Sequence record: PV467749.1
Reading direction: 5' to 3' (one strand)
Source of the DNA: a phage
Length of the DNA stretch: 64,000 bases
The stretch's first letter is position 1; each line of letters starts with the position of its first letter. Position numbers and translations under genes: made by a program. The notes under the pieces were generated by a model. It had not been told where the DNA came from. It worked only from the letters and a program-made list of their open reading frames with translations, and made no database searches. Of the stretch, positions 1 to 64,000 are shown piece after piece.

Positions 1-939
1 GAAGATAACAGTAGTGATTGTCAATTGTATGAAGAGAAAGGTACTGGAAAAGTTTTTATCACTGGTAACACGAAGGCATTCACTGGTGTAACTGATAGAA
101 AAACTTTGTGGACGGACTGTACTACGTGGATAACATCAAGTGGTATTAATGTTTCTGATATAAAATACATGAGTAGTTTTTATGATATGAAGGTGAATTT
201 GATAACAAACGATGGTACATTGTATTGTTGTGGAGCTAACAATATATCGAACATATCATCATTTGGTGATGGCACAAACATTAATTCTTTTAACACATTC
301 AAAAGAGTAGATACTATAACTTCGGTTAAAAAGGCTGTTGGTAACATTTATTTGCGAGAAGATAATACTTTATGGGGTTGTGGTTTTAACTATTACTACC
401 AGTTGGGCACGGGTAATCAAACTTCTATTACTGGGGTGACGATGATTTCTTCGGATGTTATAGATTTTAATGTAAGTTATCAGAGTACATTTTTTATCAA
501 ATCGGATAATAATTTGTACGCTTGTGGTAAACAGTTCGGTGCACAATATGGGAACGAATTTGGTACAGGTGGTACTTCCTCTTCTACTGATATACAATAT
601 AAAACTCCGACATTATTGAGTTCAGGAGTTTATACTCTATATACTTGTGTTGGTAACATGGCATCACATATTGTCAAAGCAGATGAAGTTCTATATGCTT
701 CTGGATCGAATAGGTTTGGGCAATTAGGTGTTGGTAATAATAATAATCAGTACTCCTATACTCCTTCATATACTTCGTTTAATACTTCGTGTAATTTGGT
801 ACGCACTCCATCTGGTTCACTTATACTTACTGACACTTCGAAGTTATATTATTCGGGTGCTTCATTTGTAGTAATGGGTGGTGGTGCTGGACAGAACGTT
901 CTTAATTATACCGAAGTCGATATGTCATTTGTGCAGTAA
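1..939 (+). CDS. RCC1-like repeat beta-propeller protein, array member 1 (5' end outside window)
   Basis: Frame open to position 1 (TTG at 25 is not a real start); repeated blade motifs LYCCGANN..FGDG, LWGCGFNYYYQLGTGN, LYACGKQFG, LYASGSNRFGQLGVGN; followed by cassette terminator. Confidence 0.8.
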   Translation, partial: EDNSSDCQLYEEKGTGKVFITGNTKAFTGVTDRKTLWTDCTTWITSSGINVSDIKYMSSFYDMKVNLITNDGTLYCCGANNISNISSFGDGTNINSFNTFKRVDTITSVKKAVGNIYLREDNTLWGCGFNYYYQLGTGNQTSITGVTMISSDVIDFNVSYQSTFFIKSDNNLYACGKQFGAQYGNEFGTGGTSSSTDIQYKTPTLLSSGVYTLYTCVGNMASHIVKADEVLYASGSNRFGQLGVGNNNNQYSYTPSYTSFNTSCNLVRTPSGSLILTDTSKLYYSGASFVVMGGGAGQNVLNYTEVDMSFVQ

Positions 940-948
940 ATTAATATG

Positions 949-978
949 CCAGTACTTGAGTACTGGCTTTTCTTTTTG
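949..978 (+). terminator. Intrinsic terminator: hairpin CCAGTACTTGAGTACTGG + T-run
   Basis: Perfect inverted repeat CCAGTACT/AGTACTGG with 2-nt loop followed by CTTTTCTTTTTG, 10 nt after stop at 937-939. Confidence 0.65.
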
Positions 979-984
979 TATTAA

Positions 985-1012
985 ATATAGTATAATGAAT
1001 AAGGGAGGAAAT
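985..1012 (+). promoter_or_regulatory. Cassette promoter-like element (TATAAT 991-996) + RBS AAGGGAGG (1001-1008)
   Basis: Conserved TAAATATAGTATAATGAATAAAGGAGG block present before most array genes; no canonical -35 at 17 bp. Confidence 0.5.
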
Positions 1013-2122
1013 ATGTTACCTTTTGTAAGAATGGTTAAGTACGGGAATATTGCACCAGTACCGAAAAAAATAAAGAAAGTTATAGCAGGATATGATAATT
1101 TATATGTACTATATGGTGATGGTTCGCTATATGGTTGTGGAATCAATAACTATCAACAGTTAAATATTGATGGAACTGCTACACAAAATAATTGGGTACT
1201 AATTACCAATGGTGTTAGTAATGCATGGGCTGGTGGATACAATATTTTATATTTGAAAGAAGATAAATTTATAATGCACGGAACTAATGTCTCATTAGGT
1301 TTAGGAAATACTACAATTCCATTAGGTGGAGTAGATGTAACTTCTTCATTCCCAGATATCTCTAATATTAAAATGATATCCATTGGTTTTGATTCAATGC
1401 ACTATGTTAGTGCTGATGGTACAACTGTATATGGAAGAGGTATGAACACAAATGGTTCTGTTGGTTCAGGTAGTACTTACTCACAGAGTACTTTCACTTC
1501 AGTACTGAATAATGGAACTAATCAGGTTATTGATATATTTGGTAACGTTAATAATACAGTGCTTCTAACATCGAATGGTGAGCTTCGAGCATGTGGGACA
1601 AGTGCTTATGGTTCTATAGGAAATGAAACTGGTAAGTGGACATCGTTTGGTTTAAAATTATCTGGCACTAAAATAATGGGTGGTAATGGGTATAGTACGC
1701 TTGCATATACAAATTCGGGAATGTACCACTCAGGGTGGCAGTTAAATGGGGAACTAGGAAATGGTTTAAATACTAACGTACAGGTATATCCATTTCAATT
1801 TAACTCTAAAACGATAGATAGCAAGATAGATAAAATTGCCAAATCATCATCTGGGTCATATGTTAACATGTACTCAACAACAGAAGGAAAGATATATACG
1901 ACAGGTTCGTTTGGTAAAAACGGGTCAACTACTGCATTGAATTTGTTCACCAATACATTAACACTTATAAATTACAATCCAGATACCGCCTCGTTGTATA
2001 CGTGCACAAACTTCAGTGTTGTGTATGATGGTAATGAAACTATTGCTGTAAGTGGTAGTCCTACATATGTACCAGGGGGCGTTGCCGCTAATAGATGGAC
2101 TACAATTCCATTACCCAAGTAA
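1013..2122 (+). CDS. RCC1-like repeat beta-propeller protein, array member 2 (N-term MLPFVRMVKYGNIAP)
   Basis: Start moved from track ORF 878 to ATG 1013 (conserved MLPF start, RBS AAGGGAGG 5 nt upstream; upstream part of ORF translates the terminator/promoter); RCC1-like repeats. Confidence 0.85.
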   Translation: MLPFVRMVKYGNIAPVPKKIKKVIAGYDNLYVLYGDGSLYGCGINNYQQLNIDGTATQNNWVLITNGVSNAWAGGYNILYLKEDKFIMHGTNVSLGLGNTTIPLGGVDVTSSFPDISNIKMISIGFDSMHYVSADGTTVYGRGMNTNGSVGSGSTYSQSTFTSVLNNGTNQVIDIFGNVNNTVLLTSNGELRACGTSAYGSIGNETGKWTSFGLKLSGTKIMGGNGYSTLAYTNSGMYHSGWQLNGELGNGLNTNVQVYPFQFNSKTIDSKIDKIAKSSSGSYVNMYSTTEGKIYTTGSFGKNGSTTALNLFTNTLTLINYNPDTASLYTCTNFSVVYDGNETIAVSGSPTYVPGGVAANRWTTIPLPK

Positions 2123-2129
2123 TACTATG

Positions 2130-2155
2130 CCAGTACTTGATACTGGCTTTTTTTT
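2130..2155 (+). terminator. Intrinsic terminator: hairpin CCAGTACTTGATACTGG + T9
   Basis: Inverted repeat CCAGTA/TACTGG then CTTTTTTTTT, immediately after stop 2120-2122. Confidence 0.65.
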
Positions 2156-2161
2156 GATTAA

Positions 2162-2190
2162 ATATAGTATAATGAATAAAGGAGGGAATT
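2162..2190 (+). promoter_or_regulatory. Cassette promoter-like element (TATAAT 2168-2173) + RBS AAAGGAGGG (2178-2186)
   Basis: Conserved intercistronic block. Confidence 0.5.
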
Positions 2191-62273: not shown

Positions 62274-62423
62274 TCAATCAGATTTCTTTTCGTAATCTGC
62301 AAAAACAGTCAGGATTGTTGCACACAGTGAATCAACTGCTGCTGCACGTTTTTCATCAAGGGATTTCGCTAGTTCTTGAATCTCTTGAAGTTTTACTACT
62401 AAGTCAATTTTTTGATTACTCAT
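62274..62423 (-). CDS. Hypothetical small protein
   Basis: Start moved to MSNQKIDLVVKLQEIQELAK.. (AGGAGAAG RBS; track 62516 would overlap upstream gene by 70 nt); 49 aa. Confidence 0.45.
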   Translation of the reverse strand: MSNQKIDLVVKLQEIQELAKSLDEKRAAAVDSLCATILTVFADYEKKSD

Positions 62424-62445
62424 TACTTCTCCTATTGAATGTATT

Positions 62446-62751
62446 TTAGATGTTAATTTTGATACCAGATAGATCCAGTACTTTACGTATAGTAGGTTCT
62501 GGTTCAGGCTGAACAACCTCTTCAGGCTCTTGTACTGGAATCTTTGTGTTAATATTTAGACCATCTTGAAGAATTTCAGGGATAATTCCATGCTGCACAT
62601 CATTGTACATAGACACAACAGTTTCTGCACAAGATAACATTTCACGAACTTTAAACTGATATCCTTGTGGTAAATCTTTGATGATTTCCATAACATCTAA
62701 TAACTTCGTTTGTACATCAATAAGAATACTGTTTGATTTATCTGCGTCCAT
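62446..62751 (-). CDS. Hypothetical protein
   Basis: 101 aa ORF. Confidence 0.6.
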   Translation of the reverse strand: MDADKSNSILIDVQTKLLDVMEIIKDLPQGYQFKVREMLSCAETVVSMYNDVQHGIIPEILQDGLNINTKIPVQEPEEVVQPEPEPTIRKVLDLSGIKINI

Positions 62752-63257
62752 TAATCCAACTCCACTACGTTATTTTTTTTCTTTGTATTTACTACAGTGG
62801 GTGAATCATTTTTTGTCACATCACCTCGTAATTTCTTTTCTAGTGCGATGATACGCTTTAATGTCTTAATTGACGGTCGTTTCTTTGTTAGCTCGGCTTT
62901 TGCTTCAGTATAATACTTTCGGATATATCCATATGCATAATACTTAGAACCAATAAAAATTTCAGCAACGGCTGGCTGGTTACTCATTTCGGCCCCATCA
63001 AGATCCACTGGTGATGCATAAAATACAATATTTGTATTACACGAAGAAATTTTAGCAACCAGTAAGTTAGCTTCAAGTTTATTCAAAATCAACGTAGTGG
63101 TTTCTTCTGCCTCGTCACTGTACTGCATTGCTGACATTAGAAGTTGAAATGACTTGAAGTAATTACTACCACTGATTACCGTATTGAAGATTAAGCCCAA
63201 TGTAATCAGTACTAGTGTACCAAGACATATAAACAAAAACCAATATTCAACACTCAT
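62751..63257 (-). CDS. Membrane-anchored hypothetical protein
   Basis: 168 aa; N-terminal TM segment WFLFICLGTLVLITLGLIF. Confidence 0.65.
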   Translation of the reverse strand: MSVEYWFLFICLGTLVLITLGLIFNTVISGSNYFKSFQLLMSAMQYSDEAEETTTLILNKLEANLLVAKISSCNTNIVFYASPVDLDGAEMSNQPAVAEIFIGSKYYAYGYIRKYYTEAKAELTKKRPSIKTLKRIIALEKKLRGDVTKNDSPTVVNTKKKNNVVELD

Positions 63258-63322
63258 TAATATATCCTCAGTTTGTATTTTATTAAAAAAGCCCCATCAA
63301 CATTGATGAGGCGGGAAATCAA

Positions 63323-63532
63323 TTACTTACGGTTTGCTTTACGCAGTTCAGAAAGTTCTTCTTGTAGACTTTTCTTCCATGCAATTAGATGAGCAAAACG
63401 GATTGGCCTTGCACCAGTACCGTGGAATACTGCGAGAGCTTCTTCAGCTTGATGAATCTGGAACTGAATGTAGTTCACAGTGCGGTCGAAGTCGGTGATA
63501 TCTAGTACTTGTGCGTTAGTTTCTTTAGCCAT
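63323..63532 (-). CDS. Hypothetical small protein
   Basis: 69 aa ORF. Confidence 0.55.
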   Translation of the reverse strand: MAKETNAQVLDITDFDRTVNYIQFQIHQAEEALAVFHGTGARPIRFAHLIAWKKSLQEELSELRKANRK

Positions 63533-63649
63533 TTTTAATACCCTTTTATTTCTTTTTTATGAAAAACCCTCATCATTGAGGAATGGTTTGCATTTTTACA
63601 TCTGCCGATAATATACATTATATCATGCTTTTCAGCGTTGTCCCAAAAA

Positions 63650-63946
63650 TTAATTATTTTTTAGAACAAATTTCACAACTGGTAACTCTGTTTCGTTTGA
63701 TTCGGATTCATTATATCCGTTCTTCGTGAGAACGTCAATAACTTTTTTAGAATCGATTGTAAATTTATCAAGTTCAGTATAACGATAATAACCAATGGTC
63801 TGACTGAACTCATACTCACCTGGACGCTGACGGCAACATGTTTGTGTTTCTGACATAATTGCATTGATTAGATAATAAGATTCAGTACTATCATTGTTTG
63901 GTACATAAATCTTACCATCAAAATGAATCACTTCATGCTTATTCAT
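63650..63946 (-). CDS. Hypothetical protein
   Basis: 98 aa ORF. Confidence 0.6.
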   Translation of the reverse strand: MNKHEVIHFDGKIYVPNNDSTESYYLINAIMSETQTCCRQRPGEYEFSQTIGYYRYTELDKFTIDSKKVIDVLTKNGYNESESNETELPVVKFVLKNN

Positions 63947-64000
63947 ACAGTGAGTTAATCTCCGATTGAAGAATTGAAATAATTTCCTTTTGAAGACCTG

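Follow-up and report, generated by a model that had tools for sequence, protein, structure and literature searches.

A palindromic hexamer, AGTACT, enriched genome-wide in one clade of enterobacterial jumbo phages and recurring at a fixed position in their early promoters

Introduction

Phage genomes are the textbook case of palindrome avoidance, yet in the stretch of phage DNA analysed here (sequence record PV467749.1, 64,000 nucleotides, referred to in its whole length as the window) one palindrome, the hexamer AGTACT, is present near saturation. Judged by analogy, its closest counterpart is HIP1 (GCGATCGC) of cyanobacteria, likewise a short palindrome found far over expectation in coding and non-coding DNA, at about one copy per 0.3-1.1 kb (PMC6604393). 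Both words are judged to be maintained by selection, and in both cases the function is unsettled (PMC6604393). HIP1, however, is found in the genomes of cells, and the enzymes that methylate its core are known, whereas AGTACT is an A+T-rich word of a phage clade with no evident cognate methyltransferase. A fixed place in early promoters is a feature of AGTACT, unlike HIP1.

The sites of SlmA (GTGAGTACTCAC) and Noc resemble AGTACT in being palindromic, in having an identical core and in being scattered along the chromosome, and theirs are read by a dimeric helix-turn-helix protein (PMC3020112). There are about 50 SlmA sites in E. coli, as against about 1,100 copies of AGTACT per phage genome, and the specificity is opposite, the phage site being strict at its centre and the SlmA site at its edges. 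The intergenic AGTACT modules resemble the PeSL cassettes of T4-type phages, which combine a terminator hairpin with a near-consensus sigma-70 early promoter (PMC4122927); both lie between the small open reading frames (ORFs) of plastic regions and have a lineage-specific stem consensus (PMC4122927). By this analogy, the intergenic modules are a lineage-specific form of PeSL cassettes. PeSLs are intergenic only, however, and leave unaccounted for both the more than 80% of AGTACT copies that are intragenic and the use of one word in stem, -35 flank and spacer alike.

Chi, KOPS and DNA-uptake sequences are also short words enriched genome-wide, coding DNA included, and they are enriched because a DNA-processing machine reads them. 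These words are asymmetric and skewed in orientation, whereas AGTACT is symmetric and, in the window, unskewed. Finally, the long terminal repeat of phage SPO1 is full of strong host-type early promoters that are bound and repressed by the abundant protein TF1. In contrast to what is described here, TF1 recognises hydroxymethyluracil DNA and not a defined hexamer, and we know of no genome-wide iterated word in SPO1.

Iterated genomic words are already known; AGTACT is unusual among them in being a palindrome, in reaching a tenfold excess in a phage and in forming part of that phage's promoters. The genome papers on CBB, RaK2, Sharanji and fEgEco12 give promoters, methyltransferases and restriction digests, and the AGTACT motif is absent from them. 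In the papers searched, we found neither a link between AGTACT and these phages nor a description of its enrichment.

AGTACT is the most over-represented hexamer of the window

Exact counting gave 184 copies of AGTACT in 64,000 bp (2.9 per kb; 8-16 per 4-kb bin), against 21.8 expected from base composition and 20.3 from a first-order Markov model, while 100 dinucleotide-preserving shuffles of the window contained a mean of 19.8 copies (standard deviation 4.8, maximum 33). A preliminary description of the window, made by eye, had claimed a strong over-representation, and this is borne out (184 versus about 20) by exact k-mer counting with a Markov expectation; its expectation of about 22 was right, and its estimate of 3-6 copies per kb slightly high. 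Markov models of orders 2-4 expect 40, 76 and 151 copies, a rise which occurs because AGTAC (275) and GTACT (289) are themselves inflated by AGTACT. By over-representation z-score, AGTACT ranks first of the 4,096 hexamers, and the next-ranked (CAGTAC, GTACTG, CCAGTA and TACTGG) are extensions of it. C is favoured at -1 and, symmetrically, G at +1, and the best form is the 8-mer CAGTACTG (37 copies versus about 1 expected). Gaps between copies are roughly exponential (mean 345, median 252), and no regular spacing was found except for peaks at 8 bp (terminators) and 20 bp (promoters). The copies are located as follows.

1-64000, unstranded: 184 AGTACT copies, 37 of them CAGTACTG, evenly distributed; 150 in ORFs, 34 between
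AGTACT start positions, part 1: 749 951 959 1472 1487 1501 2132 3329 3755 3926 4181 4478 4520 4528 4804 5209 5772 6144 6315 7176 7399 7678 7744 7837 8502 8612 8970 9222 9316 9472 9947 10147 10258 10550 11508 11803 11811 12185 12236 13052 13764 13820 14314 15637 15727 16088 16342 16949 16957 17089 17166 17231 17250 17321 18616 18835 18846 19501 19738
AGTACT start positions, part 2: 20569 21210 21333 21349 21445 21811 21874 22755 22813 22977 23126 23355 23577 23878 23936 23964 24353 24830 25566 25632 25850 26164 26464 27160 27389 28489 28513 28825 29210 29360 29631 30373 31948 31964 31970 32319 33061 33296 33798 34269 35000 35012 35218 35526 35618 35770 36964 37117 37705 37726 37781 37818 37920 38580 38749 38954 39180 39526 39588 39986
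AGTACT start positions, part 3: 40123 40307 41249 41502 41659 42519 42880 43371 43561 43851 44015 44201 45234 46109 46362 46483 46497 46670 46843 47189 47872 48035 48791 48914 49275 49568 49677 50443 50560 50590 50949 51181 51409 52569 53136 53512 53977 54518 54697 54933 55772 56343 56726 56821 56951 56971 57710 57765 57805 58131 58183 58203 58845 59339 59791 60219 60372 60451 60907 61033 62247 62477 63208 63504 63884

All other six-base palindromes of the window occur at or under expectation, and an observed/expected ratio of 0.74-0.88 for palindromes other than AGTACT is in keeping with restriction-site avoidance. The phage therefore avoids palindromes generally, AGTACT being the sole exception: where restriction-site avoidance leaves a palindrome under-represented, this one is ninefold over-represented. 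Furthermore, 26 of the 64 six-base palindromes, all G+C-rich, have no copy in the window, among them CCATGG (10.4 expected), TGGCCA (8.7), GGTACC (7.6), GCATGC (7.5), and CTGCAG and CAGCTG (6.8). These absences are classic restriction-site avoidance, seen beside one enriched palindrome.

The enrichment belongs to one clade of jumbo phages

The window is 99.0-99.5% identical to the Asteriusvirus jumbo coliphages EC.P1 and fEgEco12 and 84% identical to PBECO4, and is itself from an Asteriusvirus jumbo phage. The whole fEgEco12 genome, put together from eight pieces, contains 1,115 copies of AGTACT against 116.5 expected (9.6-fold) and 261 of CAGTACTG against 5.6; the genome-wide excess of a short palindrome, several-fold over Markov or shuffle expectations, that characterises HIP-type words is thus found both in the window and in this relative. 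Within Asteriusvirus, the capsid, tail and replication gene regions are enriched six- to sevenfold. Distant genera were sampled at 50-80 kb each, and AGTACT is the top hexamer in the 50-kb samples of PBECO4 and of three such phages:

PBECO4, 50-kb sample: AGTACT 142 observed vs 15.9 expected
Klebsiella RaK2, 50-kb sample: AGTACT 114 observed vs 10.8 expected
Cronobacter GAP32, 50-kb sample: AGTACT 114 observed vs 14.2 expected
Yersinia fHe-Yen9-04, 50-kb sample: AGTACT 111 observed vs 13.3 expected

The enrichment therefore spans at least four genera with little common nucleotide identity. Among 80 viral-metagenome loci retrieved by tail-sheath alignment, only three, with at least 71% sheath identity, are AGTACT-enriched; about 50 others (up to 52% sheath identity) show neither AGTACT enrichment nor a comparable palindrome. 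T4, rV5 and T5 have AGTACT at or under expectation, which rules out a general host effect, and a 70-kb sample of E. coli K-12 contains 0.24 copies per kb and no CAGTACTG. This is therefore a feature of one enterobacterial jumbo-phage clade, and not of the host or of phages at large. In the Pseudomonas relative PA5oct the situation is the opposite of that in the enterobacterial clade, AGTACT being five-fold under-represented (3 versus 14.3), and no substitute palindrome was found in that phage.

AGTACT is written into coding DNA in all three frames

Taking longest ORFs as genes gave 120 ORFs and a coding share of 88% for the window, and these calls agree well with those annotated in a 99%-identical record. 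The density of AGTACT is 2.7 per kb within genes and 4.3 per kb between them. The intragenic copies are divided between the frames AGT-ACT (72), xAG-TAC-Txx (27) and xxA-GTA-CTx (51), whereas shuffling synonymous codons with the proteins kept gives 22.7, 4.8 and 9.1 (36.7 in total, versus 150 observed) and shuffling codon order gives 16.4, 3.6 and 6.2. These data rule out an explanation by codon pairs. They also uphold the preliminary description, which had AGTACT in coding and non-coding sequence alike: all three frames are enriched, and so is intergenic DNA, which is the behaviour of a HIP-type word.

At the level of individual residues, 48% of Ser-Thr dipeptides are written AGT-ACT (15% expected), and AGTACT is present in about 35% of Val-Leu and 42% of Tyr contexts. 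The dipeptides Ser-Thr and Val-Leu are themselves 1.4-1.5-fold enriched, and Thr-Ser and Leu-Val are not. The signal thus lies mostly in synonymous choice that depends on context, and to a smaller extent in the protein sequences themselves.

Four tRNA genes lie in the window, all on the minus strand: Thr(TGT) at 54301-54372, Asn(GTT) at 56080-56153, Ser(GCT) at 56847-56936 and Ser(TGA) at 58755-58844. The tRNA-Ser(GCT) reads AGT, which makes up 34% of the Ser codons in the window, and the tRNA-Thr(TGT) serves the ACN box, these being the two codons of an in-frame AGT-ACT. The phage tRNA set may offset the coding cost of the word. The window also includes 660 bp without any called or annotated gene (40,934-41,593), holding two AGTACT copies, upstream of an RpoD-like sigma-factor gene (41,594-42,379, minus strand).

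AGTACT sites change more slowly than their surroundings

In an alignment with PBECO4, 82 of 122 AGTACT copies are intact (67%), compared with 47-48% of all or of composition-matched hexamers. Per-base identity is 0.908 within the site and 0.85 in its flanks, and C is the most conserved base (0.94). The differences at sites are scattered substitutions and not 6-bp indels, which rules out six-base insertion footprints as the source of AGTACT. Between genera (58-66% protein identity), 18 of 50, 14 of 47 and 9 of 45 sites in orthologous genes occupy the same aligned codon position. Where both proteins permit AGTACT, the second genus has the site in 60-82% of cases if the first does, and in 24-62% if it does not. 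The -1 flank is alike in four genera (C 33-47%, G 5-12%).

On these sequence comparisons, AGTACT is a selectively maintained site, as HIP-type words are, with its 67% retention and its positions shared across genera. The preliminary description had proposed a functional site at the DNA level rather than chance or Ser-Thr/Tyr codon pairs, and that proposal is supported because the enrichment is frame-independent, the sites evolve more slowly, codon positions are shared across genera and the symmetric 8-bp context is conserved.

AGTACT has a fixed place in early promoters

The early sigma-70-type promoters of these phages follow the design TTGACA-N9-AGTACT-G-TATAAT, in which the site always directly adjoins the -10 hexamer. 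Six AGTACT-bearing promoters were found in the window, all on the minus strand:

24346-24373, minus strand: early sigma-70-type promoter TTGACA-N9-AGTACT-G-TATAAT (AGTACT 24353-24358); same design as in the fEgEco12 terminal repeat and RaK2
35211-35238, minus strand: early promoter TTGACA-N9-AGTACT-G-TATAAT (AGTACT 35218-35223)
39173-39200, minus strand: early promoter TTGACA-N9-AGTACT-G-TATAAT (AGTACT 39180-39185)
56943-56976, minus strand: two-site promoter upstream of tRNA-Ser(GCT), AGTAC-TGGACA-N9-AGTACT-GA-TATAAT, sites 20 bp apart (56951, 56971)
57702-57730, minus strand: promoter TTGACT-N9-AGTACT-GA-TATAAT (AGTACT 57710-57715), sequence read directly
58124-58151, minus strand: promoter TTGACT-N9-AGTACT-G-TATAAT (AGTACT 58131-58136)

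Of the 13 canonical promoters in fEgEco12's 21-kb terminal repeat, nine carry AGTACT in this register, and in two more the site overlaps the -35 hexamer. A search of a viral collection for the exact 28-bp pattern returned only RaK2 (eight promoters), 121Q, two AGTACT-rich metagenome contigs and four chance singletons. In RaK2 and fEgEco12 many promoters contain a further copy, which lies exactly 20 bp upstream of the first and runs into the start of the -35 hexamer (A-AGTAC-TTGACA/TTGCAA-N9-AGTACT-G-TATAAT), and the histogram of pair spacings peaks at 20 bp (12 pairs in RaK2, 9 in fEgEco12). Early regions are the densest in AGTACT, at 6.5-6.6 per kb. Judged from the sequences, two sites on the same helix face around the -35 hexamer and touching the -10, in genera without other nucleotide similarity, look like operators.

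This promoter register is the strongest pointer to a DNA-binding factor. Of the functions that the preliminary description had offered for the site, a DNA-binding protein is the best supported, because AGTACT stands at a fixed position in early promoters. It had also listed intergenic CAGTACTGAA spots; AGTACT is indeed there, and most of these are minus-strand early promoters. The combination known from PeSLs, in which a stem-loop terminator precedes a near-consensus sigma-70 early promoter in the gaps between small ORFs, was found in the intergenic subset only, where the promoters are TTGACA-N16-TATAAT.

A candidate site for a clade-specific DNA-binding factor

The explanation that we tentatively favour, at a little short of an even chance, is that AGTACT is the genome-wide site of a clade-specific, probably dimeric DNA-binding factor and is operator-like at early promoters. 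The site would have its optimum in CAGTACTG, with G disfavoured just outside the core. Its putative reader would be sequence-specific, most likely dimeric and particular to the RaK2-like jumbo phages of Enterobacterales, and therefore probably phage-encoded. A protein on both promoter positions would occupy the area contacted by RNA polymerase; given this overlap, the factor is predicted to control, and probably to shut off, early transcription. With more than 80% of the copies inside genes, the entire phage chromosome would be a dense substrate for the same factor, carrying about 3 sites per kb where E. coli has about 0.24. Terminator stems and promoter spacers would carry AGTACT because they are the places least constrained against it.

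Such a density of sites could serve as a sequence-encoded 'self' mark in a phage that lacks base hypermodification. The phage DNA is ordinary and is cut normally by restriction enzymes (PMC13070987), so that hypermodification is not available as a self-mark, and there is no phage nucleus in Asteriusvirus infection (PMC11895373). We regard it as possible, if on the unlikely side, that the approximately 1,100 CAGTACTG-type copies make up a 'self' mark written in sequence instead of chemical modification, read by a dedicated phage protein that gates early promoters and distinguishes or organises the chromosome, with AGTACA used one-way where the reading is directional.

Several observations weigh against a DNA-binding factor of this kind. 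A simple symmetric binder fails to explain the 8.6-kb block of fEgEco12, PBECO4 and 121Q in which AGTACA stands in one orientation (see below). Within genes, 13 AGTACT copies are followed by a -10-like hexamer (AGTACT-N-TAnnnT), where about 13 are expected by chance (our estimate from base composition), and a role in silencing spurious promoters is therefore unsupported. No reader protein emerged from Pfam and PDB searches of the annotated 'regulators', which returned no match, and what the phage gains from the roughly 900 intragenic copies is inferred. Finally, the promoter copies could in principle be part of the surface that the polymerase contacts, and not an operator.

Whatever reads it, AGTACT shapes codon choice, dipeptide content and possibly the phage tRNA set, and it offers a simple metagenome diagnostic for the clade. 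It gives a handle on early-promoter control in a 350-kb phage with neither modified bases nor a phage nucleus, and possibly on how a phage tells its own DNA from that of the host. If a specific reader does exist, it would be a new DNA-reading factor; if the self-mark reading is true, the word would be a genome-wide cis-code of a kind undescribed for any virus.

A one-orientation AGTACA block and a possible polar signal

The 375-kb genome of fEgEco12 has only two long AGTACT-free stretches (20,857-26,616 and 29,016-37,647), both just inside the left terminal repeat. The second holds 46 copies of AGTACA against 4.2 expected, all on the sense strand (18/17/17 by frame) and with the usual C/G flanks, but no AGTACT and no TGTACT. 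The same one-orientation pattern is present in PBECO4 (44 AGTACA) and 121Q (about 42). The block is about 8-9 kb long, and in fEgEco12 the excess of its orientation fades gradually up to about 60 kb. Other palindromes occur within it at expectation, which rules out a general avoidance of self-complementarity. No homologues of the block genes were found outside Asteriusvirus. Orientation, then, can matter, and a final model will have to accommodate the block.

The block adjoining it has the opposite orientation (9 versus 2 in fEgEco12, 13 versus 1 in PBECO4). A tandem family of paralogs shares a conserved codon motif in which these sites fall, and this weakens the idea of a clean, origin-like polarity switch, on which GC skew is uninformative. 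The region in question (fEgEco12 21,000-27,000), directly inside the left terminal repeat, contains about 25 overlapping tandem ORFs of about 70 codons with an LGTNYQE-like motif (TTAGGAACAAACTATCAAGA).

The site might instead be a strand-specific signal (about CAGTACWG) for a DNA-tracking machine, either a Chi-like helicase-nuclease stop or a priming or nicking site of a T4-type replisome, for which a palindrome would be the cheapest way to place the signal in both orientations. The block, with its 42-46 one-strand AGTACA copies in all three frames of three genomes, its gradual fading and its oppositely oriented neighbour, speaks for such a signal, as do a site density that matches the short Chi-like motifs of other bacteria and the likewise enriched host Chi in these phages. 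We nevertheless consider it unlikely. Genome-wide, AGTACT is enriched 9.6-fold and AGTACA and TGTACT only about 1.4-2-fold, the latter falling to about 1.4-1.5-fold outside 25-60 kb of fEgEco12 (our estimate from bins); as a rule, then, only the symmetric site brings the benefit. In the window, the one-sided forms AGTACA and TGTACT show no orientation skew (91 versus 105), so that an asymmetric, orientation-biased word is found only in the block of the relatives. Furthermore, the opposite sites of the neighbouring block, being part of a paralog codon motif, make a weak 'polarity switch'; the block genes are all on one strand, so that transcription is inseparable from replication as the polar process; and the fixed promoter register is left unexplained.

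The E. coli Chi octamer (GCTGGTGG) occurs five times in the window, versus about 0.4 expected, at 1229 (plus strand) and at 17493, 24846, 35377 and 41345 (minus strand). Four of the five are in the sense orientation of genes, against 0.83 expected after synonymous shuffling. In fEgEco12 there are 34 copies on the plus and 14 on the minus strand (1.9 and 1.4 expected), and the ten within the 21-kb terminal repeat stand in varied contexts and in a single orientation.

Other explanations

Another reading, in our view quite improbable, is that a phage DNA methyltransferase or some other enzyme modifies AGTACT, and that this modification rather than the word itself serves as an epigenetic self-mark or in strand discrimination, as with Dam at GATC or the methylation of HIP1. 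Two methyltransferases are indeed encoded by the phages, one of the C5 type (PF00145) and the other a small N6-adenine enzyme of the Dam family (PF05869), the nearest analogue, HIP1, is methylated (PMC6604393), and modification of AGTACA, which is asymmetric, could be confined to one strand and so lend polarity to the variant block. However, the most conserved base is C (0.94) and AGTATT is not elevated, so that there is no signature of 5-methylcytosine deamination, and the cytosine methylation reported for RaK2 is at CpG, which is absent from AGTACT (PMC3622015). A 5-methylcytosine target is unlikely on both counts. The family of the Dam-type enzyme occurs in more than 2,000 phage records without known enrichment of this kind and is too widespread to be diagnostic, and modification gives no reason for the promoter register. 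The modification target suggested in the preliminary description thus finds no positive support beyond the presence of the two methyltransferases.

A functionless by-product of biased mutation, repair or gene conversion, for example very-short-patch-like repair toward AGTACT, is very unlikely, although enrichment wherever coding permits, terminator stems and promoter spacers included, is what such a drive would produce, and it would likewise make existing sites look as if kept by purifying selection. Of the 18 one-mismatch neighbours, not one shows the expected pattern of depletion: transition neighbours occur at 0.9-2.25 times expectation (AGTATT 0.9, AATACT 1.57), and most neighbours are mildly enriched, which rules out a short-patch repair drive of the Vsr type. 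The differences between species are, moreover, scattered substitutions. Two blocks, 14 kb together and as old as the split between fEgEco12 and PBECO4, have gained no site despite 109 one-mismatch neighbours, whereas outside these blocks 4.5% of one-mismatch neighbours correspond to AGTACT in the other species. A fixed promoter register across genera would also be unexpected.

We give little credence to a signal at the RNA level, with AGUACU/AGUACA as the site of an RNA-binding protein or endoribonuclease or as a self-pairing element: the variant block has the motif on the sense strand only, the terminator hairpins use it in RNA and a palindrome would supply it to transcripts of either strand, but the one-sided forms are equally frequent in the window (89 sense, 81 antisense) and the palindrome is strongly preferred, the promoter copies stand in fixed register in untranscribed spacer DNA, and symmetric flanks (C at -1, G at +1) are a property of double strands.

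Recruitment or titration of a host protein, with SlmA as the candidate that would block division during a long infection, is just as improbable, and for SlmA itself it is ruled out: its binding site has the same core (PMC3020112), the enriched phages all infect Enterobacterales while the Pseudomonas relative is depleted (3 versus 14.3), and cells infected by Asteriusvirus filament with DNA spread through the cell (PMC11895373), but binding by SlmA depends on G1, T2 and a purine in third place on both sides of an AGYRCT core, the centre of which tolerates changes (PMC3020112), whereas the phage sites require the central TA, have C at position 3 in 33-47% and avoid G there, have flanks biased away from the SlmA site (45 matching at least four of six positions, against 99.6 expected) and include no perfect site in 375 kb, and there is no enrichment in T4, T5 and rV5, which share the host.

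AGTACT stems in the terminators of a paralogous gene array

Between 169 and 18,825 the window holds 16 paralogous genes in tandem, each about 360-450 codons long, which in relatives carry the annotation 'chromosome condensation regulator' (RCC1-like). After these genes, terminators read GCCAGTACT-nn-AGTACTGGC followed by a T-run. As RNA they fold at -12 to -16 kcal/mol (z -4.3 to -7.3), and each is a stable, G+C-containing hairpin with a U-run behind it, as in intrinsic terminators. The array terminator stems (CCAGTACT..AGTACTGG) that the preliminary description had read as made of AGTACT are therefore real, and are the following:

948-977, plus strand: intrinsic terminator after an RCC1-like paralog, GCCAGTACT-tg-AGTACTGGC + T-run, the stem being two AGTACT; fold -13.2 kcal/mol, z = -5.1
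4517-4546, plus strand: terminator of like design, GTCAGTACTcaAGTACTGGC + T-run; fold -12.0 kcal/mol, z = -4.3
5769-5800, plus strand: terminator-like hairpin ACCAGTACTgaaatacGTACTGGT + T-run
9306-9334, plus strand: terminator GCCAGTACAgAGTACTGGC + T-run
11800-11832, plus strand: terminator GCCAGTACTtgAGTACTGGC + T-run
15724-15752, plus strand: terminator GCCAGTACTcTGTACTGGC + T-run
16946-16974, plus strand: terminator GCCAGTACTcaAGTACTGGC + T-run, between convergent genes; fold -16.1 kcal/mol, z = -6.4
18832-18863, unstranded: bidirectional terminator TCCAGTACTattatAGTACTGGA, T-runs on both strands; fold -15.1 kcal/mol, z = -7.3

Most genes of the array are followed by such an AGTACT-stem terminator together with an TTAAATATAG element that resembles the late promoters of T4-type phages.

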